Shown here: piece after piece, positions 2,218 to 59,359 of the stretch
Layout of the letters: each line of letters starts with the position of its first letter
Numbering within the stretch: the stretch's first letter is position 1
Virus record (IMG/VR): IMGVR_UViG_2786546475_000019
Coordinates: 974 to 64,973 of that record
Source of the DNA: a virus
DNA length: 64,000 bases
Strand: one strand, 5' to 3'
Position numbers and translations under genes: made by a program
The notes under the pieces: generated by a model
Databases searched by the model: none
Told to the model about the DNA's origin: nothing
What the model saw: only the letters and a program-made list of their open reading frames with translations

Positions 2218-2232
2218 AAACCCTTAGCCGCG

Positions 2233-2263
2233 GACCGGTCCAATTTGGACCGGTCTATTTTTA
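2233..2263 (+). terminator. rho-independent terminator candidate
   Basis: GACCGGTCC-AATTT-GGACCGGTC (9-bp stem) followed by TATTTTTA, 16 nt after the stop codon. Confidence 0.7.
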
Positions 2264-2273
2264 TGCCCTTGGA

Positions 2274-2333
2274 ATATCAACTAGCTGCACGCAATATCAA
2301 ATAGCTGCACGCAATATCAACTAGCTGCACGCA
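2274..2333 (+). repeat. three tandem 20-bp iterons AATATCAA(C/A)TAGCTGCACGC
   Basis: units at 2274, 2294 and 2314; one substitution in the middle unit. Confidence 0.9.
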
Positions 2334-2430
2334 AACCCGGTAGGGGTTTATCACAAGTCGTTGCACCCAGGAACAATACCGGGGTCCGTCGCCCTTAACG
2401 CGACGACACAAGCATGATATTTTGTGCCAC

Positions 2431-2577
2431 GGTCCCCGGACCTAGCTACTCGGACCTAGCTACTCGGACCATGCACCCTGATCCACGGACCATGATCCAC
2501 GGACCACGGACCAAGCTACTTAGGCCAAAACACAATGATACTGGGGTAGGGGTTCAGAATCCGCCGGTCCGTGGACC
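2431..2577 (+). repeat. GGACC/GGTCC array (7 GGACC, 2 GGTCC) with tandem 14-mers GGACCTAGCTACTC x2 and GATCCACGGACCA(T/C) x2, ending in the palindrome GGTCCGTGGACC
   Basis: tandem units at 2438/2452 and 2480/2494; palindrome at 2566-2577. Confidence 0.85.
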
Positions 2578-2612
2578 AAAGAACTTCATTAACGTTTCCT
2601 CTGAAAATTATT

Positions 2613-2676
2613 TTCTGAATTTTTTCAGAATTAGGGGCAATCCGTCCTGCCCTCATTCGTATCTATAGGGAAGTCC
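2613..2676 (+). promoter_or_regulatory. promoter-like module A1: palindrome TTCTGAA-N4-TTCAGAA, then TTTTCA-N6-GGGGCAATCC-N11-CATTCGTATCTATAGGGAAGTCC
   Basis: one of three copies with identical geometry (others at 59266-59322 + and 58653-58708 -); 12 nt before ATG 2688. Confidence 0.6.
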
Positions 2677-2687
2677 ACCTACTGATA

Positions 2688-3257
2688 ATGATAATGACAA
2701 GAAAACTTTATCCAGCATTACCTGATCACCCTGAGTACCGTTGCAAGTCCACGGCTCAAAACAAACATTGTACGTTTCTATCATGTGACGGACTTCGCAA
2801 ACTGAATCTGTACGACGATCCAAGGCAATCTGATAAATGTCCCAAGCACGCCGGACGACCACCAAGTAAACAAACAGCTTTGGCAAAGTACATGGACACC
2901 CATCCTCATGAGGTGGGTTATCATTTGCCGGACCAAGCACCAAAGGTGCATTCCCAATCCCGAAGTGTCGCCGAAGAACTTCACATTCTCCGCACACTTC
3001 TTCAAAACACCCTGAACCAATGCAATACGTCGCTCGACTTACTCGCTAACACTGAGCGAATGACAGTCTTAAGTGATAAGATTGCTAACTTGATAAAAAC
3101 TGACGTATTCCTCGAAGAAAAAACAAAGAACTCCTTGACGCGGGACCAAATCATGGCCGTGCTCTCGGAGATACAACAAGTGATAACTCGGCATTGTTCG
3201 CCGGAGCAGGTCGCACTGATCCGTCAAGACTTCCAAGAACTAACCATTCCTGACTAA
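2688..3257 (+). CDS. hypothetical protein, first gene of the rightward structural operon
   Basis: 189-aa ORF directly downstream of module A1. Confidence 0.6.
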   Translation: MIMTRKLYPALPDHPEYRCKSTAQNKHCTFLSCDGLRKLNLYDDPRQSDKCPKHAGRPPSKQTALAKYMDTHPHEVGYHLPDQAPKVHSQSRSVAEELHILRTLLQNTLNQCNTSLDLLANTERMTVLSDKIANLIKTDVFLEEKTKNSLTRDQIMAVLSEIQQVITRHCSPEQVALIRQDFQELTIPD

Positions 3258-3268
3258 CCTCAGTTACT

Positions 3269-3574
3269 ATGCCAAGTCACATAAATCCAAATCGCATCAA
3301 ATCAGAGACGATGTTCGCCGGAGCACAGAACATCAACATTATCACTACGGAATCCAGCGTCACGCTCCGTGCTCCAGATGATACAACTCAATCGCTCACG
3401 CCAACCGGAACCCATCCAAATAAAGTAATCTCAGCAACCCTCGATCAAGCAGGTTTCTACACCGTAGACGGTCACATTGGAAAAGTCCTTGTGCTTGTTT
3501 CCACTTATGATGAAACCTACGGAGCTGCTTACAGAGGAACGGGACTCACCCCAGTAGTAGGCCAAGACGCCTAA
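3269..3574 (+). CDS. hypothetical protein
   Basis: 101-aa ORF, co-oriented and tightly spaced. Confidence 0.5.
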   Translation: MPSHINPNRIKSETMFAGAQNINIITTESSVTLRAPDDTTQSLTPTGTHPNKVISATLDQAGFYTVDGHIGKVLVLVSTYDETYGAAYRGTGLTPVVGQDA

Positions 3575-3585
3575 CCAAACAAACC

Positions 3586-5217
3586 ATGTCATACGCAGAC
3601 GAAACAACAGCAAAAGCAGCCGTAGCAAATGCCATTGGCAACGCAACAAGCGTCGATCCAGTGAGCAATACGGAACATGCTGACGTTCTTGATAATTTGA
3701 TCGAGAACATCTTCGCCGCTGATGGTATCACTGTGTATTTCGCCGAACCTCTGTCGGGACTTGGCGATGACGGCGACGTCACAATCTACGAAAACAAAAT
3801 CTACTCGAAAGCTGCCGGAACATGGTCCGAGGAACTTGAATTAACAAGCTGGACTTTCAATACTGCTGATCCTCCCACGTCCACGTCTCACACTTATGCA
3901 ATCTCGACAACCGGCCAATTATACGTAAACGTCGCCGGAACATGGACCTTGCAGCAGTTATCATTAGGCAAATACAAAGGTGCTCACTCAACCACCACAA
4001 AGTATTACGCCAATGATATTATCCTCTACTCAGGGGAATTGCAGTACGCTAACAGCACGCACAATCCTAAGACATATGACGCCGCAGACTGGACTTCGCT
4101 ACCTACTGCGTCATCAACCCACGTACTCCACGATGATATCTCAACACTTCCTTCCTCCCCGGACGGTTACACGCTTGAACTATATGACGGGATCGGCGAG
4201 GGGATGCTCTTTGAGCGGGTATCAAGTGCGTGGGTTTACCGAACACAGACAACAACTCCAGTTGTTGACCTAACCTCTGGCAACGCTTCAACGATTGCAG
4301 CATATTTGTCCGCTGGTCAAATATATCGGTACAATTTAACGACAGGCGAACCATACTACGTTGATAACGCCGGAGCACGGACCTCGCTTCCTCCAATCCA
4401 AACCGCCGTAACAGCCCTACCGTCAATTGTAGACGGTCCCGATCTATTGGTTTGGACCACGGACCCTGACGGGCATCGAGCGTACTTTAAAGGAGCTTCC
4501 GCGTACCAGAAGCTCCCACTTGTCCCAAGTATCCAAGAGTCCGATCAATCACTTTCGGAGAATCGGGAACTAGCGTACAACGCCCGAACACTATCATTCG
4601 ACGGTGACGGCACATTCCGCTTCGGAGACTTAAGCGACAACACCGACGGATATTATGCGGCCTTCAACTCCGGTGCGTTACAGTGGGCCAATGCTACACC
4701 GGAAACGAACCTCACGTCCATCACCCCTACCATTGTCAATTCGCAAAACCTAGCTCTGGTAAACGACGGCACTAGCAACAGTTTCACGTTGAAATACGCA
4801 GGAAGCCAAGATCAAGACTTTACGTTTCCAGCAGATCTTCCAGCTTTAGGTAATATTCTGGAAGTCACGGGCCTTGCAACAAGTTCCATTGTAGTAGGCT
4901 GGCGTAAGCCCGTAAAAGACTGGTTCACGCTAACCTCAGCCACCCCAACTGTGACAGTTGACGGCAATGATAGCAAACGCTTTAAACTTGACCCTGGGCA
5001 CACTCCAATTACAATTGCTTTCACTAATTGTGAGCAACATGATTTTGTTCTCCTCAAGATACGAGGTCACGCTACAAACTCAGTGTCAATGCCTGCCGGA
5101 GCAGACGGTGACGTTTTCTCTCTTAGTACGGATGATACAAAAGCAACTTTAGTCACAGCTATCATTGATGGTTCCGCCATCCATCTTGGCGTAATGAGGG
5201 ACGTATCATGGGCTTAG
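3586..5217 (+). CDS. putative tail fibre / receptor-binding protein
   Basis: 543 aa, Thr/Ser/Gly/Tyr-rich repetitive beta-type composition; adjacent to a beta-helix protein. Confidence 0.45.
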   Translation: MSYADETTAKAAVANAIGNATSVDPVSNTEHADVLDNLIENIFAADGITVYFAEPLSGLGDDGDVTIYENKIYSKAAGTWSEELELTSWTFNTADPPTSTSHTYAISTTGQLYVNVAGTWTLQQLSLGKYKGAHSTTTKYYANDIILYSGELQYANSTHNPKTYDAADWTSLPTASSTHVLHDDISTLPSSPDGYTLELYDGIGEGMLFERVSSAWVYRTQTTTPVVDLTSGNASTIAAYLSAGQIYRYNLTTGEPYYVDNAGARTSLPPIQTAVTALPSIVDGPDLLVWTTDPDGHRAYFKGASAYQKLPLVPSIQESDQSLSENRELAYNARTLSFDGDGTFRFGDLSDNTDGYYAAFNSGALQWANATPETNLTSITPTIVNSQNLALVNDGTSNSFTLKYAGSQDQDFTFPADLPALGNILEVTGLATSSIVVGWRKPVKDWFTLTSATPTVTVDGNDSKRFKLDPGHTPITIAFTNCEQHDFVLLKIRGHATNSVSMPAGADGDVFSLSTDDTKATLVTAIIDGSAIHLGVMRDVSWA

Positions 5218-7058
5218 GATTAGGATTAAACATGGGCTTGTTTCCTTTACCATCGGTTAAAGCAACATTGGACAACCGTCCTTTGTTCACGTCGCTTGCA
5301 TTTTTGCAATGGCGTCGCGATATAGTAACTGCAAAAGAACGCCCCACGTATTGGATCCCTCAAACAGAGTATTACGTCAGTGAATCGACCGGTAACGACG
5401 CTAACGCTGGAACAGAAGTCGCCCCTTGGCAAACACTTGAAAAAGCTCAACAAGTTCTTGACGCTTTGTCTGATGAATCGTATACCGTTATACGGCTCAA
5501 ACGTGGTGATACTTGGGAAGAAGAAGGAACTGTTTTAGCGGTAGACGGAAACTCGTGCTTACTGCGACTGACAAAGACGTTCAGCGGGATCAGTTCTTAC
5601 GGGTCCGGTGACCTGCCGTTTATCAATCAATTTGCTACCAAATACACGTCGGGTTGGACTGTTCACAGTGGGAACGTCTACGTCCGATCGGAAGCCAATG
5701 ATATTGTTAGCGTTCGGCTAACAACTGATCGCCTTGTACCTTTTTACGACGCCACAGACGCTACAGATTGTGCTACCGATATTGCTGACACAAACGGCTC
5801 ATATTTTTATGATGCGACTGGCAACAACTTATATGTCAACCTTGGCGGTACTGATCCGAATACAGTAACGATTGAAGCTGCAATTTCTAATGATGACACA
5901 GTTGAAGCGGTAGCACATGGTTGTTTCATCGAGAACATTCGGCTCGACGGCACGTTAAAAAGAACAACAAGGGACGAGCAGGCGGGTATCCGTTTAAATA
6001 TCAATGGCAGTGAAGTCGCAAGAATCGAGAACTGTGAAGCGTATTATGGTTCGTCTCACCTGATACACCAGAACGGTTTAACCGGGACTGGCGGCATCGG
6101 TATTATCAAGAATTGCAAAGCTGGCTATTCGCTCTGGAATACTGGCGGAAACACGATTTTCAATTCATACACATTAGGCGGCGATCAAGAGACTTATGTC
6201 CAAGACTGCGAGGTTCCTTATGGAACATTACCAGGTCACGAGTGGACGTCGACTAACTCAGCACACGATGCTTTAGATGGTTCAGCGTTTTATTGTCATG
6301 CTGGTGGCGGGGCAAACACTGGGTTTATCCTCGTCGATGGGATGAAGTGCGACCATGATAACGCTTGGGGTCCGCAAGAAGGGTCTTACAATGGTAGTGC
6401 TCCAGCAGCAGCAACAATCGAAGACGCCAAGGTAGTTGTCTTCGGAGAGGTCGTAGATAACAGCCGACTTGGGTTGCGATGTTTCCGATTATCACCTGCG
6501 AACGGAGTTGGAATTTGCAACACGTACACAGGAGGCTACGGCACCGATAGAAATTACCGAGCACTTTCAGCAACAAACCAAAGCGGCTTTATGTTTAATT
6601 GTCGCTTCGACGTTTCTCTCCCTGCTGGACTATTTAACGCTCACGGATTCTGGAACGGTTCTGGAACGTCAAATGTAAGCTGGTTCTTTAACCGTTTTAT
6701 CCAACGAGCTTCTCACGGATCGCATGATCTTGCGTTTAATTATGACTCCGTTTCTACATGGCCTGACAGCACGCTTTACAACAACGTTATCGCTCGCGTT
6801 GGAACCTATGATAACTCGGTCGCTATGTATAACGGCACTCCCGATTCCAACAACAATGCTCTGTATCAATTCAAAGGGGCGAACGCAGGAGCAAACTCAA
6901 TTGACATTACAACCGAGGCCGAAGCGGTTCAAGACACAGCAAATGTTGATACTTACGGTACATGGGAAGCTGCAAATACAGCAATCGGAGTTGTGCCTGA
7001 GTACGACAGGCTTCTGAACCCGCGAACAGCAACAACAAGCATTGGAGATTTGGCGTAA
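5208..7058 (+). CDS. right-handed beta-helix (pectate-lyase fold) tailspike / depolymerase-like protein
   Basis: N-terminal STGNDANAGTEVAPWQTLEKA motif typical of parallel beta-helix proteins; Asn/Gly-rich repeats; ATG overlaps the upstream stop. Confidence 0.55.
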   Translation: MGLGLGLNMGLFPLPSVKATLDNRPLFTSLAFLQWRRDIVTAKERPTYWIPQTEYYVSESTGNDANAGTEVAPWQTLEKAQQVLDALSDESYTVIRLKRGDTWEEEGTVLAVDGNSCLLRLTKTFSGISSYGSGDLPFINQFATKYTSGWTVHSGNVYVRSEANDIVSVRLTTDRLVPFYDATDATDCATDIADTNGSYFYDATGNNLYVNLGGTDPNTVTIEAAISNDDTVEAVAHGCFIENIRLDGTLKRTTRDEQAGIRLNINGSEVARIENCEAYYGSSHLIHQNGLTGTGGIGIIKNCKAGYSLWNTGGNTIFNSYTLGGDQETYVQDCEVPYGTLPGHEWTSTNSAHDALDGSAFYCHAGGGANTGFILVDGMKCDHDNAWGPQEGSYNGSAPAAATIEDAKVVVFGEVVDNSRLGLRCFRLSPANGVGICNTYTGGYGTDRNYRALSATNQSGFMFNCRFDVSLPAGLFNAHGFWNGSGTSNVSWFFNRFIQRASHGSHDLAFNYDSVSTWPDSTLYNNVIARVGTYDNSVAMYNGTPDSNNNALYQFKGANAGANSIDITTEAEAVQDTANVDTYGTWEAANTAIGVVPEYDRLLNPRTATTSIGDLA

Positions 7059-33403: not shown

Positions 33404-33612
33404 GCCAAAGCCAACTTGAAGCTTACGCCAGACAACGTAAGTTTAGGCCCAAGATGGAAAATGTTCAAATTTGTGAACAGTGCGACCACTTAATACGTGA
33501 TCGCTACTGTTCCAAATTTGGCAAGTGTCCTGACGCTCAAAAAGATTTCTTTAAAGCCCTTGAACGAAGTAAATGTCCTTTAGAGAAATTTCCGTCGCAG
33601 CTCAGCGAATAG
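33400..33612 (+). CDS. small Cys-rich protein, last gene of the rightward arm
   Basis: 70 aa, CEQCDH...C...C; 3' end overlaps the convergent gene by 33 nt. Confidence 0.45.
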   Translation: MSQSQLEAYARQRKFRPKMENVQICEQCDHLIRDRYCSKFGKCPDAQKDFFKALERSKCPLEKFPSQLSE

Positions 33613-33996
33613 AATTCTAACTTGCTTAGGAGTTAACTCTAACAAACGCCCGATTTCCGAATACGTATAGTATTGAAGTCGTAAACTTACAGCCCATCGC
33701 TCCTCGACAGTTAGCCTATCTAGGTCAAACTGATCGAGGAATTCTTCTGCACTTCTTGATAATTCTTCAATATCGCCTAACGCTTCGGTATCATTGTTTG
33801 TTTGCATTTTCTTTCGACGACGGTAAGCGTCAATACCTCTCGACCGTAGTAAGGTTCTTAAGTGTGAGATGAATTTCTTTTCCTCAACTAGCTCATGATA
33901 ATTCTCCCACGCTTGTAAAAATTCCAAAGATAGCGAGCAGTCAAATTTAGTTTCAAACTCTCGCAACAAGTAAACATAATCGTCGATCCTTCGCAT
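33580..33996 (-). CDS. sigma-70 region-4-like HTH protein (minimal ECF/LuxR-type)
   Basis: LTVEERWAVSLRLQYYTYSEIGRLLELTPKQVRILFAELRRKF matches the region 4.2 pattern. Confidence 0.5.
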   Translation of the reverse strand: MRRIDDYVYLLREFETKFDCSLSLEFLQAWENYHELVEEKKFISHLRTLLRSRGIDAYRRRKKMQTNNDTEALGDIEELSRSAEEFLDQFDLDRLTVEERWAVSLRLQYYTYSEIGRLLELTPKQVRILFAELRRKFL

Positions 33997-37585: not shown

Positions 37586-38236
37586 TTAAACCATATTCAA
37601 AGTAATTGGAGGTTTGTCGCTTTTTAAAAGTTTAGCTAGCTTTTCTAACGCTCGCTTTTCAAGTTGACGAACTCTTTCTCGCGAGATATTAAGAGTTTCC
37701 CCAATAGTCTTAAGAGGAATCCCTTGGGCTCGTAGCCTCAAAACTAAAGCATCTCGACTATTTAACTCAAGAAAAGCTTTTTCTAGAGCAATAAGCTCCT
37801 CTTGCCATTCTATCAAATCCCTATCAAGACATTCTAAAGGTGTAACAGGGTTATTAAATAGCCCGTGTAAGGTTTGAAACATTGGAGCACGAGCTATAGC
37901 AGCTTTAGCTCTGTCAAGATGAGCTGGATTTGGAGATACTTTAATTAACTCCACCTTGGTTTTCATGTAAGTTATCATTCGTTGTTTCACCCACGGAGTG
38001 GCGTAAGTTGAAAACTGATAACCTTTACTAGGGTCAAATTTTTTGACCGCCTGACATAACCCACTCATTCCTTCTTGAATTAAATCGTCTAAATCAAGCT
38101 TAGAATTTTTCTTGGCAAAAGACACCGCTATCTTGATAACCAATCCTTGATTATCTAACACTAACCGATTGAGTGCTTCATCAGCTTCCTTTCTAGCAGA
38201 ATGATATTTTTGTAATAACTCGTCATTAGTATCCAC
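37586..38236 (-). CDS. sigma-70 family RNA polymerase sigma factor (group-3-like)
   Basis: region 2 DDLIQEGMSGLCQAVKKFDPSKGYQFSTYATPWVKQRM; region 4.2 TIGETLNISRERVRQLEKRALEKL. Confidence 0.85.
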   Translation of the reverse strand: MDTNDELLQKYHSARKEADEALNRLVLDNQGLVIKIAVSFAKKNSKLDLDDLIQEGMSGLCQAVKKFDPSKGYQFSTYATPWVKQRMITYMKTKVELIKVSPNPAHLDRAKAAIARAPMFQTLHGLFNNPVTPLECLDRDLIEWQEELIALEKAFLELNSRDALVLRLRAQGIPLKTIGETLNISRERVRQLEKRALEKLAKLLKSDKPPITLNMV

Positions 38237-43911: not shown

Positions 43912-44387
43912 TCCGGCTCAGTAGTTCCAACGTATCCCATACCTTTGCCAAGAATCTTGTCTTGATAATAATACCATCGGTATGAGAAGATACAGTCTTC
44001 GAAATCTCCGGCCAAGCCTTTATAATATCCAGGCATAGCCAAGTTTGGAGGAGTAAGAGGGCCACGTCGTATGTAACACGGAGATTGATAAAGATACCCA
44101 ACCCGGTTCCATACTTCATGTAAAGCTAACCCTCTCTTATCCCGCTCCTTCAACAACGCTATCATATGCTTCAAAGTCCATTGATAATTTGAATCAGTGG
44201 AACGAACCCATTGAGTTGACGGGTGATTTGCGAAGCATGGTTTACACATTCCTTGACGCCAAAGTCCAACTTCGTCATGTGCCGTTGATAACATTTGGGC
44301 ACACTCAATCGGCATTTTTGTTAAATGGTCCGTGGCCATGTAGCTAGCTGCAAGGACCGGGTCCATATCAAGGAAGAAAACATTCAC
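43881..44387 (-). CDS. conserved phage protein of unknown function
   Basis: N-terminal FFLDMDPVLAASYMATDHLTKMPIECAQMLSTAH recalls a widespread phage/virus family I cannot name with confidence. Confidence 0.5.
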   Translation of the reverse strand: MNVFFLDMDPVLAASYMATDHLTKMPIECAQMLSTAHDEVGLWRQGMCKPCFANHPSTQWVRSTDSNYQWTLKHMIALLKERDKRGLALHEVWNRVGYLYQSPCYIRRGPLTPPNLAMPGYYKGLAGDFEDCIFSYRWYYYQDKILGKGMGYVGTTEPEWLLHLKGKL

Positions 44388-44770
44388 GCCCCAAGTCCAA
44401 GCGATTTGATGGAAGCCCTTTTGAGTGCTGTCAAGGTAACAACACGTCCAAGTAGCTTGGAAAGTGTTTCTTCGAAGTTATCAAGTTGCTCCGATAATTT
44501 GTATTCGAAGCCGTTCAAAAGTATCACTTCTTCCAAGTTCTCAGAAACCCAAGAATTTAAGTCTTGGTCTTTCACAAGATACTTACCGTCTTGAATCGTT
44601 AACTTGCCATTGATAGTTGGGCCTTTCAATTCGTCTCGCCAAATTTTCACGTTTTCAGGAGCGGTTATGTTAATTGAAGCAGCTCCTGATCCTGCATCAA
44701 AGATTGTTACCCGAACGTCGTTCCCAATTGTAAATGATTGCGACGCCCAGCGTTTAAGAGTTAACGCCAT
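44384..44770 (-). CDS. hypothetical protein
   Basis: 128-aa ORF. Confidence 0.5.
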   Translation of the reverse strand: MALTLKRWASQSFTIGNDVRVTIFDAGSGAASINITAPENVKIWRDELKGPTINGKLTIQDGKYLVKDQDLNSWVSENLEEVILLNGFEYKLSEQLDNFEETLSKLLGRVVTLTALKRASIKSLGLGA

Positions 44771-49508: not shown

Positions 49509-49527
49509 GATATTCCTTTCTAAACAA

Positions 49528-49578
49528 GTAAACAACGGTCCACGCTCCATGATACTTGGAGCGTGGTACGTTGGCTAC
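49528..49578 (-). promoter_or_regulatory. intergenic stem-loop cassette B1
   Basis: - strand GTAGCCAACGTACC-ACGCTCCA-AGTATCA-TGGAGCGT-GGACCGTTGTTTAC; starts 9 nt after the upstream stop. Confidence 0.7.
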
Positions 49579-49586
49579 TCTTACCG

Positions 49587-51284: not shown

Positions 51285-51629
51285 TCAGTCTCCTCTTATC
51301 AATTGATAAATTTCTTTGTAAGTATGTACTGGCATATTATACTTGTCCGCTATATCCTGCCAGTTCTCTTCCCACCAGCTAAAAGAATGACACTGACCCC
51401 CAACTTTCAACACTCCAAAGTCTTGGTTGACTTCTACTTTGCGGCCGTGTAAAATTCCGAGTGTTATCAGTTTGCCGTAGCCGTAGCCGTAGCCGTAGCC
51501 GTAGCCGTCGCCGTCGCCGTAGCCGTCGCCGTAGCCGTAGCCGTAGCCGTAGCCGTCGCCGTAGCCGTAGCCGGTCCCGTAGCCGGTCCCGTAGCCGGTC
51601 CCGTAGCCGTCGCCGTGGTTACTTAACAT
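51285..51629 (-). CDS. protein with an N-terminal Gly-Tyr(-Asp/Thr) repeat region
   Basis: GDGYGTGYGTGYGTGYGYGDGYGYGYGYGDGYGDGDGYGYGYGYGYG followed by a ~60-aa non-repetitive domain. Confidence 0.55.
   Translation of the reverse strand: MLSNHGDGYGTGYGTGYGTGYGYGDGYGYGYGYGDGYGDGDGYGYGYGYGYGKLITLGILHGRKVEVNQDFGVLKVGGQCHSFSWWEENWQDIADKYNMPVHTYKEIYQLIRGD
51474..51616. repeat. hexanucleotide microsatellite (GCCGTA/GCCGTC/GCCGGTCCCGTA variants) encoding the GY repeats
   Basis: about 143 nt of near-perfect 6-nt periodicity. Confidence 0.9.
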
Positions 51630-51640
51630 TTGATAGTTCC

Positions 51641-52518: not shown

Positions 52519-53062
52519 TGGCCACGGCTCCCATCTTAAGAACCTTGGCACACATTGCCAACAATTTGGCGTGGTGTCGGGGAGCTTCAACATGGTTCTC
52601 GAACCATGAATCATCCGCCCCACATGGTAGCTTGACTCCCCCGGCTCGGAAGTATTGATAATTGTGCCGTGCGACACGGGCATTGTCCCGTGCATTGAGC
52701 AAGCACTCCCGTCTCGTGGCCCGTGGCGGACGAAGATGGTCGAATTTCATCAAAAGAACGCTATCAATGGAAGATTTCCCGCATCCTGCGTCTCGCAGCG
52801 TGCGAATATCATCCGCTGCGGCTTTGCGAGCGGTTCGAACCCACTCAATATGGGCCAGAGCTTCCCGATAAAGGTCGATCTGTTCGCTGATCCAGTAGCC
52901 AAGGGTGGCCTCAAAATCATGGAGAGTTACTTGATAGTCCAGAGTTCCGACCCAACGTAGCGGGGTGCCTGGAATGTAAGCTTTGTAGTCGTGGCCGGAA
53001 GCCTCGACCTCGACAGGCAAATCGTTGACGTAGAACATTCCAAGAGGTTGCATAGCTTTCAT
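52511..53062 (-). CDS. hypothetical protein
   Basis: start moved to ATG 53062 behind cassette B2. Confidence 0.5.
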   Translation of the reverse strand: MKAMQPLGMFYVNDLPVEVEASGHDYKAYIPGTPLRWVGTLDYQVTLHDFEATLGYWISEQIDLYREALAHIEWVRTARKAAADDIRTLRDAGCGKSSIDSVLLMKFDHLRPPRATRRECLLNARDNARVARHNYQYFRAGGVKLPCGADDSWFENHVEAPRHHAKLLAMCAKVLKMGAVANV

Positions 53063-53087
53063 GATAATCCTTTCAAGTGAGAAAAAA

Positions 53088-53134
53088 GTAAACAACGGTC
53101 CCTGCACCTCACGAGTGCATGGTACGTTGGCTAC
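53088..53134 (-). promoter_or_regulatory. intergenic stem-loop cassette B2
   Basis: - strand GTAGCCAACGTACC-ATGCAC-TCGTGAG-GTGCAG-GGACCGTTGTTTAC, then TTTTTTCTCACTTGAAAGGATTATCATG. Confidence 0.7.
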
Positions 53135-53144
53135 TGGCTTGCTA

Positions 53145-53570
53145 CTAAACAATTGCCCTCTGATTCAGTTCAGGAACAACAGTGTGAGCTATCAATATCC
53201 CAAGCTTGACGCCCCAGTTGACGAGTCTTTGATAAGCTTCGTCCAGCTCCGCCAACGTCTTATATTTAAGGGTCAGCCCGCTGATTAGCAAAGGCTCACC
53301 GTCGCGAGTCGCTCGCAACACGCATTTCCCGTCCCCGGTTGTGATAGAAAAGCTGCATTTATCAGCTAGTCGTAGCTGCGGTATGCCAACCATGTTCAAT
53401 TTTCGTCGAACGTATTGGCGAGCCGCCTGGGAGTCCGTAGCATACGTGACCTTGAGGTGCTCAATAATTTGTTGAGTGTCGGACGTGCCATACAGCTCCT
53501 GAAGTCGCTGATCGGTCTCAAACATCAGAAGTTGCTCGATGAAATTCCAAGTCGTGTGATTGTTAATCAT
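53145..53570 (-). CDS. hypothetical protein
   Basis: 141-aa ORF behind cassette B3. Confidence 0.5.
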   Translation of the reverse strand: MINNHTTWNFIEQLLMFETDQRLQELYGTSDTQQIIEHLKVTYATDSQAARQYVRRKLNMVGIPQLRLADKCSFSITTGDGKCVLRATRDGEPLLISGLTLKYKTLAELDEAYQRLVNWGVKLGILIAHTVVPELNQRAIV

Positions 53571-53591
53571 GATAATCCTTTCAAGAAATTA

Positions 53592-53638
53592 GTAAACAAC
53601 GGTCCATGCACCTCATGGGTGCACGGTACGTCAGCTAC
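53592..53638 (-). promoter_or_regulatory. intergenic stem-loop cassette B3
   Basis: - strand GTAGCTGACGTACC-GTGCACC-CATGA-GGTGCAT-GGACCGTTGTTTAC. Confidence 0.7.
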
Positions 53639-53645
53639 CAACTAC

Positions 53646-54014
53646 TTATACTTCAGTCCGCCACTTAAGCCAGAATTCCAACATAGCGTTAAAGTTGTGG
53701 TAAGTCCCGTCGTCTTCGACGTTATGATAATCTTCAAGGTCCAACGGGGCGAACTCCTCAAGTGTCTCACGCAACGGTCTGACGGTGTGTGAACCATTCG
53801 TTGAGTAAGAATATGAAACTTCCGTTAACGCCTCACATCGCACAATAAAGGTTTCGAAAGTTTTCTCAAGCCGAGATTGGAGCCTGCGATCTTTGATTTC
53901 TCGAACTATCAGTACCGGGGTTCCTGGTCCTTTGACCAATAACCCTTTCTTGATTTCGATTCGGTTCTCTTTGACTTCTCGACAGATTTTGAACAACATA
54001 GACTTAGCTTTCAT
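53646..54014 (-). CDS. hypothetical protein
   Basis: 122-aa ORF behind cassette B4. Confidence 0.5.
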   Translation of the reverse strand: MKAKSMLFKICREVKENRIEIKKGLLVKGPGTPVLIVREIKDRRLQSRLEKTFETFIVRCEALTEVSYSYSTNGSHTVRPLRETLEEFAPLDLEDYHNVEDDGTYHNFNAMLEFWLKWRTEV

Positions 54015-54038
54015 GATAATCCTTTCAAGTGAGAAACA

Positions 54039-54085
54039 GTAAACAACGGTCCGGGCTACCCGTGGGCAGCACGGTACGTTGGCTA
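54039..54085 (-). promoter_or_regulatory. intergenic stem-loop cassette B4
   Basis: - strand TAGCCAACGTACC-GTGCTGCCCACGGGTAGCCC-GGACCGTTGTTTAC. Confidence 0.7.
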
Positions 54086-54093
54086 TTGATAGA

Positions 54094-54113: not shown

Positions 54114-54168
54114 ATTAAATCCAGATTGTCAAAGATCAAAATTATCATTTGTGTCCCGCCACTGGCGG

Positions 54169-54284
54169 AAATGATATGATAGCTTACAGACCTACGGTCA
54201 ATCTATTCTATACTTAATATCGGCAATTGGGAAGTAAGAAAATAGATTATTTTTGAAAATAATCAAAACTTTATCATATCATTT
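54169..54284. promoter_or_regulatory. operator pair AAATGATATGATA (54169-54181) / TATCATATCATTT (54272-54284) bracketing the palindrome GATTATTTT-TG-AAAATAATC (54245-54264)
   Basis: exact reverse-complement 13-mers; the identical pair occurs at 59227/59347. Confidence 0.7.
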
Positions 54285-58708: not shown

Positions 58709-58793
58709 TAAATCGAGTTAATGGAAATTGATACGAAACTTTAATGACGTTTCCAGTGCAGCGTTATCATTATTCTCTCACGTACGCGAAGCC

Positions 58794-58932
58794 ATTAACG
58801 TTTTTGATACTCAAACCTTTAATTTAAGCTTCTACTTCTTATGGGTACGAGGTGAAAGTAAAATATAGTAGTAGTGTAAATATTATAAGGATTTCAGCCG
58901 CTCAGGCGAGCTTCTGATAAGAAAACGTTAAT
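58794..58932. repeat. 11-bp inverted repeat ATTAACGTTTT / AAAACGTTAAT flanking a very AT-rich stretch
   Basis: arms at 58794-58804 and 58922-58932; related TTTTACGTTAAAT at 58941. Confidence 0.7.
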
Positions 58933-59017
58933 GAGCCAAATTTTACGTTAAATTGGTATGTTTCGACGGGAATTGATACCGTCTCACTGCTCTCCTCCCG
59001 AACCTTGCATCTTGGCT

Positions 59018-59058
59018 CACGCTACACGTATCACGCTACACGTATCACGCTACACGTA
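59018..59058 (+). repeat. tandem 14-mer CACGCTACACGTAT x2.9
   Basis: units at 59018, 59032 and 59046; followed by ACGT/CGCGTG-rich repeats up to 59225. Confidence 0.9.
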
Positions 59059-59142
59059 CGCGTAGCACGTGGGTACGTGCCAGGGCCAAAGACCTTGAGT
59101 TCTCTTTTAAGTCTCGGAACTGACGTGTAAATTAGTAAGCGG

Positions 59143-59169
59143 TTATCATTTTGCGTGAGCAAATGATAA
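59143..59169. promoter_or_regulatory. inverted repeat TTATCATTT-N9-AAATGATAA
   Basis: perfect 9-bp arms. Confidence 0.6.
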
Positions 59170-59226
59170 TTCTCGCGTGCTCCCGCGTGTCCCGCACGTG
59201 CGACTATTTAAATACGCGACGTGCGT

Positions 59227-59359
59227 AAATGATATGATACATGGTTTTCAAAATACTTGAAAATATTTTCAAAATACGGGGCAATCCTGCCCGGTTTTAT
59301 TCGTAGCTATAGGGGGAAAGTAGACTGTTTTACTTTCCAAAACGACTATCATATCATTT
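59227..59359. promoter_or_regulatory. operator pair AAATGATATGATA (59227-59239) / TATCATATCATTT (59347-59359) bracketing module A2
   Basis: exact 13-mers identical to the 54169/54272 pair. Confidence 0.7.
59257..59322 (+). promoter_or_regulatory. promoter-like module A2: palindrome TTGAAAATATTTTCAA, then TTTTCA-N6-GGGGCAATCC-N11-TATTCGTAGCTATAGGGGGAAAGT
   Basis: same 29-nt spacing from GGGG to CTATAGGG as A1 and A3. Confidence 0.6.

Follow-up and report, generated by a model that had tools for sequence, protein, structure and literature searches.

Promoters of the ECF type carry an 'AAC' motif in the -35 element and CGT in the -10 element, with 16-17 nt between them, as in TGAAAC-N16-CGTA of B. 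subtilis SigW, and the conservation of T7 promoters is contiguous, extending from -17 to +6 over about 23 bp. In phages that encode a sigma-70-family protein of their own, such as SPO1 (gp28 or gp33/34) and phiEco32/7-11 (gp36), a few highly similar two-block sites of non-sigma-70 type precede blocks of genes and are predictable from sequence alone (PMC4331800). The late-operon promoter of terS, which is served by activators of the RinA/Ltr family, is located directly before the first gene of the packaging module and controls the morphogenesis arm (PMC3152322).

The stretch of 64,000 nucleotides analysed here, henceforth the window, represents most of the genome (~72 kb) of an uncultured marine tailed phage, whose proteins are found in identical form on Tara Oceans contigs of 71.4-72.3 kb. 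We probably see in its element A1 one of exactly three phage-specific two-block promoters that head three transcription arms. The resemblance to the promoters of PMC4331800 comprises all of the properties listed above, including a phage-borne gene of the sigma-70 family; here, however, a single promoter type heads the replication arms plus the packaging arm, the sigma gene resides inside one of the driven arms, and region 4.2 of its product is sigma-70-like, whereas the -35 block is not. T7-group class III promoters (TAATACGACTCACTATAGGGAGA) have in common with A1 the CTATAGGG core with its GGG start, a small number of exact copies and the position at the heads of transcription units, but the present phage lacks a gene for a single-subunit RNA polymerase, and its conserved blocks reach to -35 and -46 across a variable spacer. 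Like the terS promoter, A1 stands directly before an arm of packaging and morphogenesis genes; in contrast to that system, no RinA/ArpU-type activator was detected, no activator gene is adjacent, and it is by gene position alone that the 189-aa product of the first gene suggests a small terminase. With ECF promoters A1 shares the spacing GGCAAT-N16-CGTA and the CGTA -10 element, yet the 'AAC' signature is absent and the one ECF-like protein scores weakly, below the cut-off.

Anatomy and distribution of module A

The genome harbours three copies of the module, all of them intergenic and each aimed at the first gene of one arm:

2622-2670, plus strand: A1, aimed at the 189-aa ORF
59266-59314, plus strand (59257..59314 with the palindrome TTGAAAATATTTTCAA): A2, aimed at the ParB-like gene with ATG 59375
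58708-58660, minus strand: A3, TTTTCA box without palindrome, aimed at the primase-helicase gene with ATG 58586

The plus arm (2688-33612) starts with genes of no recognisable function and an S8 peptidase and proceeds to a GpA-type large terminase (13215), a P22-like coat protein (17758) and a tape-measure protein (21642). The minus arm (58592-33580) encodes the primase-helicase, a Dam-type methylase, thymidylate synthase, a CsrA-domain protein, a sigma-70-family protein of 216 aa and a weakly ECF-like protein of 138 aa, and the third arm runs from the ParB-like gene (ATG 59375) through an SNF2 helicase, a second ParB, DNA polymerase A and a ligase. The CsrA-domain protein (44384-44770, minus strand; 128 aa, N-terminal domain with Pfam E = 1e-8) could be a phage-encoded translational regulator.

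All copies face a start codon at a distance of 18-75 nt and follow the same layout: TTTTCA, N6, GGGGCAATCC, an 11-nt spacer and AyTCGTAkCTATAGGG, downstream of which a GAAGT is loosely conserved. In A1 the elements are arranged as follows:

2622..2627, plus strand: TTTTCA box, set in A/T-rich upstream sequence and in each of the three copies exactly 6 nt 5' of block 1
2634..2643, plus strand: block 1, GGGGCAATCC, putative -35 region
2644..2654, plus strand: 11-nt spacer, equal in length and unlike in sequence among the three copies
2655..2670, plus strand: block 2, ATTCGTATCTATAGGG, putative -10 and initiation region, which includes the T7-like CTATAGGG

The segment GGGGCAATCC...TCGTATCTATAGGG spans 2634-2670, with TCGTATCTATAGGG at 2657-2670 and the GGG at 2668-2670. 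The three spacers (GTCCTGCCCTC, TGCCCGGTTTT and GATATCCCGCC) are wholly different at constant length. On both strands of the 64-kb window, GGGGCAATCC, CTATAGGG and TCGTAnCTATA occur three times each and always together. Shuffled sequences yielded no match to the module, and a relaxed two-block search with up to 6 mismatches detected no weaker copies in the window and the remaining ~8 kb of the genome. The similarity of the modules is far beyond chance, and their copy number, positions, anatomy and conservation are direct observations. The pentamer CTATA/TATAG is among the most avoided 5-mers of the genome (0.23 of expectation), a deficit consistent with selection against stray cores. Exact-pattern scans found no match in IMG/VR and only five chance matches, in coding DNA, in the JGI metagenomes; the exact module is carried only by near-identical relatives, so that conservation says little about the individual blocks. 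Neither an Rfam family nor a tRNA was detected in scans of the window. A1 and A2 have hairpin potential (GGGGCA...TGCCC pairing), but A3 forms no structure, which argues against a structured DNA or RNA element; a hairpin promoter of the N4 type was rejected on this ground. By inspection a sigma-54 promoter was discarded as well, since A1 deviates by one from the required GG/GC spacing and A2 and A3 lack it altogether.

The first-pass annotation had called A1 promoter-like, a description borne out by the three oriented copies heading arms, the two-block layout, a terminator upstream and an invariant stretch of 145 nt. The region 5' of A1 contains two further elements:

2232..2264, plus strand: strong intrinsic terminator behind the 453-aa gene, with an 11-bp stem (7 G-C pairs) and a 3-nt loop (2232-2256) plus a T tract
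2273..2580, plus strand: repeat-rich non-coding region with three copies of the 20-nt AATATCAAnTAGCTGCACGC, GGACC-containing repeats and GGTAGGGGTT twice

The diverged relative L002 has another hairpin with a T tract in place of this terminator; the function is thus kept while the sequence has changed. Compared with L002, the window is without a single difference over 2575-2719, a stretch that includes the palindrome, the module, the leader and the first codons; 2200-2574 contains 96 differences and 2720-3300 contains 11. A consensus scan disclosed no sigma-70-type promoter between the terminator and the ATG. The repeat-rich region could be a packaging or replication site and is context outside the promoter; its repeats vary in copy number in L001 and L002, and the relative L090 has a comparable repeat region with GGGTAGGGTT, which is similar to GGTAGGGGTT, at its arm start.

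Several other repeats were recorded. The long non-coding stretches 1-855 and 2260-2580 of the window contain GGACC direct repeats, 20-nt repeats and perfect hairpins (263-325, 739-793); their repeat copy number varies among near-identical contigs, and they are candidate packaging or replication sites. Coding tandem repeats are present at 2161-2205, where (GAAGCG)n specifies the Glu-Ala tail of the 453-aa protein, and at 51444-51634, with (GCCGTA)n on the plus strand and a Gly-Tyr repeat protein of 114 aa encoded on the minus strand. The interval between A3 and A2 (58709-59256) holds three copies of ACGTGTAGCGTGAT (~59016-59057), CACGTGCGGGACACGCGGGAGCACGCGAG and a rare perfect TATAAT, and by its sequence looks like an origin flanked by twin promoters.

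Palindromes and tandem TGATA boxes

Modules A1 and A2 and an intergenic island at 54.2 kb are accompanied by symmetric and tandem elements:

2613..2630, plus strand: palindrome TTCTGAA-TTTT-TTCAGAA, a perfect 7-bp inverted repeat whose right arm overlaps the TTTTCA box
2683..2693, plus strand: tandem TGATA box (TGATAATGATA), putative operator, which overlaps ATG 2688 and stops directly 5' of ATG 2694
59230..59239, plus strand: tandem TGATATGATA box 5' of A2
59347..59356, minus strand: inverted tandem TGATATGATA box within the leader of A2, directly 5' of the ParB SD
54172..54281, no strand assigned: second inverted tandem TGATATGATA pair, ~100 nt apart, in the 54.2-kb island, enclosing the GATTATTTTTGAAAATAATC palindrome

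The palindrome at A1, already noted in the first-pass annotation, consists of TTCTGAA (2613-2619), TTTT (2620-2623) and TTCAGAA (2624-2630). Its proposed kinship with palindromes elsewhere held only in part: TTGAAAATATTTTCAA at 59257-59272 and GATTATTTTTGAAAATAATC at 54245-54264 are indeed present, but they do not amount to a shared operator. At A1 and A2 the right arm of the palindrome is the module's own TTTTCA box, A3 has this box without a palindrome, and the spacing of the half-sites differs (TGAA-N4-TTCA at A1, TGAA-N6-TTCA at A2). What the three copies have in common is therefore not an operator but the TTTTCA box at -46 to -41. The palindrome of the 54.2-kb island has no A module adjoining it, and palindromes with arms of at least 7 nt are over-represented in general (80 versus 32 +/- 5.5 in Markov simulations). 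Another repeated module, ~80 nt long, has four copies on the minus strand (49522-49579, 53053-53135, 53561-53638 and 54005-54087); it is composed of AGTAGCCAACGTACC, a hairpin, GGACCGTTGTTTAC and CTTGAAAGGATTATCATG, sits 5' of small minus-strand genes and may be a different promoter, an attenuator or a processing signal.

The pentamer TGATA is enriched 3-fold genome-wide (496 observed versus 166 expected), in all reading frames and on both strands, and this enrichment is common to the relatives L003 and L006 and absent in L008. Tandem boxes of the form TGATA(N0-2)TGATA are as numerous in the window as a 4th-order Markov model predicts. Their placement is intergenic in five of five cases, with 9% of the window being intergenic, and in five of seven cases in the whole genome, the other two lying inside genes outside the window; A2 is bracketed by an inverted pair of such boxes. 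Identical 22-nt boxes (GAGATTCTAACCTATCATTTTT) occupy both twin leaders of L007, the closest lineage, and other lineages have tandem GATTT boxes in their twin leaders. Because the boxes are found in both orientations and also 5' of a promoter, an operator acting at the DNA level is likely the most economical reading of these sequences. The ATGATA repeats had earlier been proposed as an element of control: an intergenic tandem-TGATA element exists and is plausible as a control site.

Further compositional biases were noticed in the window. GCGC is nearly absent (2 sites versus ~325 expected), and TATA amounts to 0.27 of expectation; AAGCTT is enriched ~3.5-fold, next to the 3-fold enrichment of TGATA/TATCA. 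The depletion of GCGC, like the enrichment of TGATA, is common to L003 and L006 and not seen in L008, a distribution that suggests restriction avoidance tied to the host, together with an unexplained bias in pentamer use.

The consensus of the iron regulator Fur in its 7-1-7 form is GATAATGATAATCATTATC, and the GATAAT-GATAAT over the start codon might accordingly be viewed as a host Fur box that renders the arm iron-responsive. Indeed, TGATAATGATAATGA fits 12 of the 14 specified positions of the 7-1-7 consensus, the best score in the window, and the start-codon site of A1 agrees with GATAATGATAATCATTATC at 14 of 19 positions. However, sites with at least 13 of 19 matches number 23 versus 25 expected from the 4th-order Markov model; Fur-like sites thus occur at background rate, as TGATA is enriched genome-wide. 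Moreover, the other tandem boxes are spaced by 5 nt and not by 6 nt. With no excess over the compositional background, we rejected the identity as a Fur box, and iron-responsive control of the arm is very unlikely.

Candidate polymerases and specificity factors

The two-block layout of the sigma-70 family was found in module A, and the two invariant blocks, the spacer of fixed length and free sequence, the A/T-rich upstream region and the orientation towards the proximal gene are, as far as sequence can tell, hallmarks of a sigma-dependent promoter. Promoter activity, start site, the sigma factor used and operator function are inferences. Three features are pertinent:

2668..2677, plus strand: predicted transcription start zone, from the block positions and the modules of relatives
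37586..38236, minus strand: sigma-70-family protein of 216 aa with regions 2 and 4, candidate specificity factor
33580..33996, minus strand: 138-aa protein, weakly ECF-sigma-like (32.6 bits versus TIGR02937, cut-off 42.9)

In the proposed mechanism, a bacterial-type RNA polymerase would use a specialised sigma factor to bind block 1 (GGGGCAATCC) at about -35 and block 2 (TCGTAkCTATA) at about -10, with the A/T-rich TTTTCA region farther 5' serving as upstream contact. Transcription would begin in or just past the GGG, at 2668-2677, so that the A1 transcript would start beyond the terminator of the preceding gene. Via an unstructured leader of 11-26 nt without SD it would enter the Zn-ribbon gene, which holds the small-terminase position in relatives, and run on through the arm of packaging and structural genes. 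The most likely role of the tandem TGATA box at the start codon would be that of a DNA operator for a phage or host repressor; by inference, the ParB-like proteins encoded beside A2 are candidates for binding such boxes.

The CTATAGGG core of block 2 is identical to positions -5 to +3 of the T7 consensus, and a T7-class promoter for a single-subunit phage RNA polymerase was therefore considered, with the TATA of CTATAGGG as melting region, the GGG as start and the upstream bases conferring specificity. In line with this idea, block 2 ends in CTATAGGG(A/G) as T7 promoters do from -5 to +3, CTATAGGG is present in three of three copies, the copies are very few and very exact, and a related lineage carries GGGTATATAGGGAGAG. 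Conservation in module A is, however, split by the 11-nt variable spacer and extends to -46, whereas T7 promoters are contiguous from -17 to +6. Furthermore, Pfam and PHROG searches of the window ORFs and precomputed Pfam calls for the remaining ~8 kb (taken from L003) yielded no gene for a single-subunit RNA polymerase, leaving this reading very unlikely for the complete gene set of ~72 kb. The sole polymerase-like ORF of the genome is the DNA_pol_A protein, and a DxDGD-type catalytic motif is present in no ORF, for which reason a split multisubunit phage polymerase among the genes of no recognisable function was rejected as well. The lack of both a single-subunit enzyme and the DxDGD motif makes a bacterial core enzyme with a specialised sigma factor the best reading. 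As a long shot, a promoter class with a T7-like TATA-GGG core might be in use throughout a family of uncultured marine phages without recognisable phage RNA polymerase; it would be read by an unrecognised polymerase or sigma-like specificity factor, possibly encoded among the genes of no recognisable function downstream of A1, or else three such promoters and the tandem-TGATA operators would constitute the whole transcription programme of the 72-kb genome.

For sigma-dependent initiation at module A, the probability of a promoter splits roughly evenly between dependence on a phage sigma factor and on a host holoenzyme. The 216-aa protein resembles sigma-70 in region 2 (FSTYATPWVKQ) and in region 4.2 (SRERVRQLEKRAL); with a region 4.2 so close to sigma-70 and a -35 block unlike TTGACA, recognition of GGGGCAATCC by this protein is argued against. 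In addition, its gene is part of the A3-driven arm, so dependence on the phage sigma raises a bootstrapping problem; the location, which recurs in the corresponding arm of L007, favours host recognition of the promoters or a feed-forward loop. It is accordingly possible, if doubtful, that the modules are early promoters for the host RNA polymerase holoenzyme with a housekeeping, alternative or ECF sigma factor, and that the phage sigma serves other sites; in that case every one of the three arms would be transcribed from early on, with the TGATA operators and termination setting the timing. Host recognition avoids the bootstrapping problem here and in L007, and the twin position in relatives is often occupied by sigma-70-like sequences (TGAACA-17-TATAGT, TTTACT-17-TAGAGT, TGGACA-17-TAAGTT). 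The GGCAAT-N16-CGTA of the module has in turn the spacing and the CGTA -10 element of ECF-type promoters, but CAAT takes the place of 'AAC'. A consensus scan for TTGACA-N16-18-TATAAT with A-11 and T-7 identified no site at any of the three modules, and inspection of block 2 revealed no hexamer with both A at -11 and T at -7, the bases that housekeeping sigma factors need. A separate sequence, TTTGATCTTTGACAAT(T/C)TGG, occurs twice, at 708-730 (5' of the 453-aa gene) and at 54118-54140 (54.2-kb island), and includes a perfect TTGACA without a matching -10 element; given the sigma-70-like region 4.2, it could be a site for the phage sigma.

Finally, the module might be a DNA site for replication or packaging, with A2 and A3 as outward priming or origin sites on either side of an iteron region and A1 as part of a cos/pac region, a reading that we consider quite unlikely. 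A2 and A3 do flank ~550 nt with the triple ACGTGTAGCGTGAT repeat between the primase and ParB genes, and A1 does adjoin a repeat-rich region 5' of the gene that abuts TerL in relatives. Yet all copies are directed at a start codon 18-75 nt off and are bipartite with a variable spacer, a terminator lies 5' of A1, and the positional equivalents in relatives resemble -35/-10 promoters. The module is also non-palindromic, and its hairpin potential is not conserved, being missing in A3.

The A1 leader, the first arm gene and the phage family

Alignment of relatives' modules with A1 suggests that the -35 element is close to GGCAAT, that TAkCTA or TATAGG marks the approximate place of the -10 element and that the start falls at 2668-2677. 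As the first-pass annotation had stated, the leader is short and without GGAG: 2668-2687 is free of GGAG/GAGG, the predicted starts give 11-26 nt, and the leader is predicted to be unstructured (z = +0.7). The annotation had set this leader against strong ribosome-binding sites elsewhere, but 27 of the 83 genes (33%) are without an SD-like motif, among them the first three of the arm, with the next two genes at 3269 and 3586. Nor was its proposal of special initiation control of the late arm supported: SD-less starts are common, and the same module also heads both replication arms. The repeats over the start codon were correctly placed, CTGATAATGATAATGA at 2682-2697 spanning ATG 2688. A second in-frame ATG follows at 2694, and the N-termini of homologs as well as the public cluster representative (187 aa) fit this codon slightly better than 2688; the true start may thus be ATG 2694.

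2688..3257, plus strand: first arm gene, 189-aa Zn-ribbon plus helical protein (187 aa from ATG 2694)

The 189-aa protein belongs to a family of >450 proteins of ~180 aa that have a Cys/His zinc motif at the N-terminus and are helical in the C-terminal half. Its homolog directly abuts the GpA-type large terminase in L089 and L091 and is located 3.8 kb 5' of the terminase in L090 and 10 kb 5' in the window. No sequence or fold similarity to known small terminases was found, and the structure model (pLDDT 82) produced generic coiled-coil matches only. The designation as first structural gene is hence appropriate only by position: the product is a Zn-ribbon protein whose homologs abut TerL in relatives, and the recognisable TerL, portal, capsid and tail genes of the window start ~10 kb past A1, after a block without recognisable function. 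None of 80 primase-centred loci contains a homolog of the 189-aa protein within 10 kb, and the family alignment is too divergent for a back-translated locus search. The 88-aa ORF beside TerL has no counterpart beside TerL in L089. The 543-aa and 616-aa ORFs at 3586-7058 have no Pfam or PHROG match, and for the 543-aa protein 5.8 billion proteins contained just one homolog, at 92% identity. Different genes take the place of the block after the 543-aa ORF in L002, so that the segment which separates Zn-ribbon gene and terminase is a hypervariable insert.

Megablast and tblastn searches of GenBank phages with the region, the 543-aa ORF and the primase returned no useful cultured relative. The primase has hundreds of metagenomic homologs at ~40% identity, including 376 IMG/VR contigs, and the divergent ParB|primase arrangement is conserved in the family. 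In ~30 of 75 related loci the intergenic region between ParB and primase contains lineage-specific 'twin' inverted modules of 22-99 nt, several of which read as -35/-10 promoters, as given above. L076 has a third module copy before ParB2-PolA, and in the 69.6-kb genome represented by L066 and L089, CGTAAC-N17-TATGAT is twinned at ParB|primase and occurs twice at the start of the late arm. The use of one promoter type on replication and late arms thus recurs in the family and is no peculiarity of A1.

Taken together, the flagged element is mostly ordinary, a probable promoter with a short SD-less leader plus a likely operator, and the T7-like initiation core in a phage without recognisable phage RNA polymerase is a mild curiosity. 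If confirmed, the three modules would provide a near-complete map of transcription in a large uncultured marine phage family and a defined promoter/sigma pair that would be testable in vitro without knowledge of the host. Lineage-specific twin promoters at ParB|primase, re-used on other arms and bracketed by tandem-pentamer boxes, form a pattern of the whole family, and this pattern offers a natural data set for the co-evolution of promoters and specificity factors.
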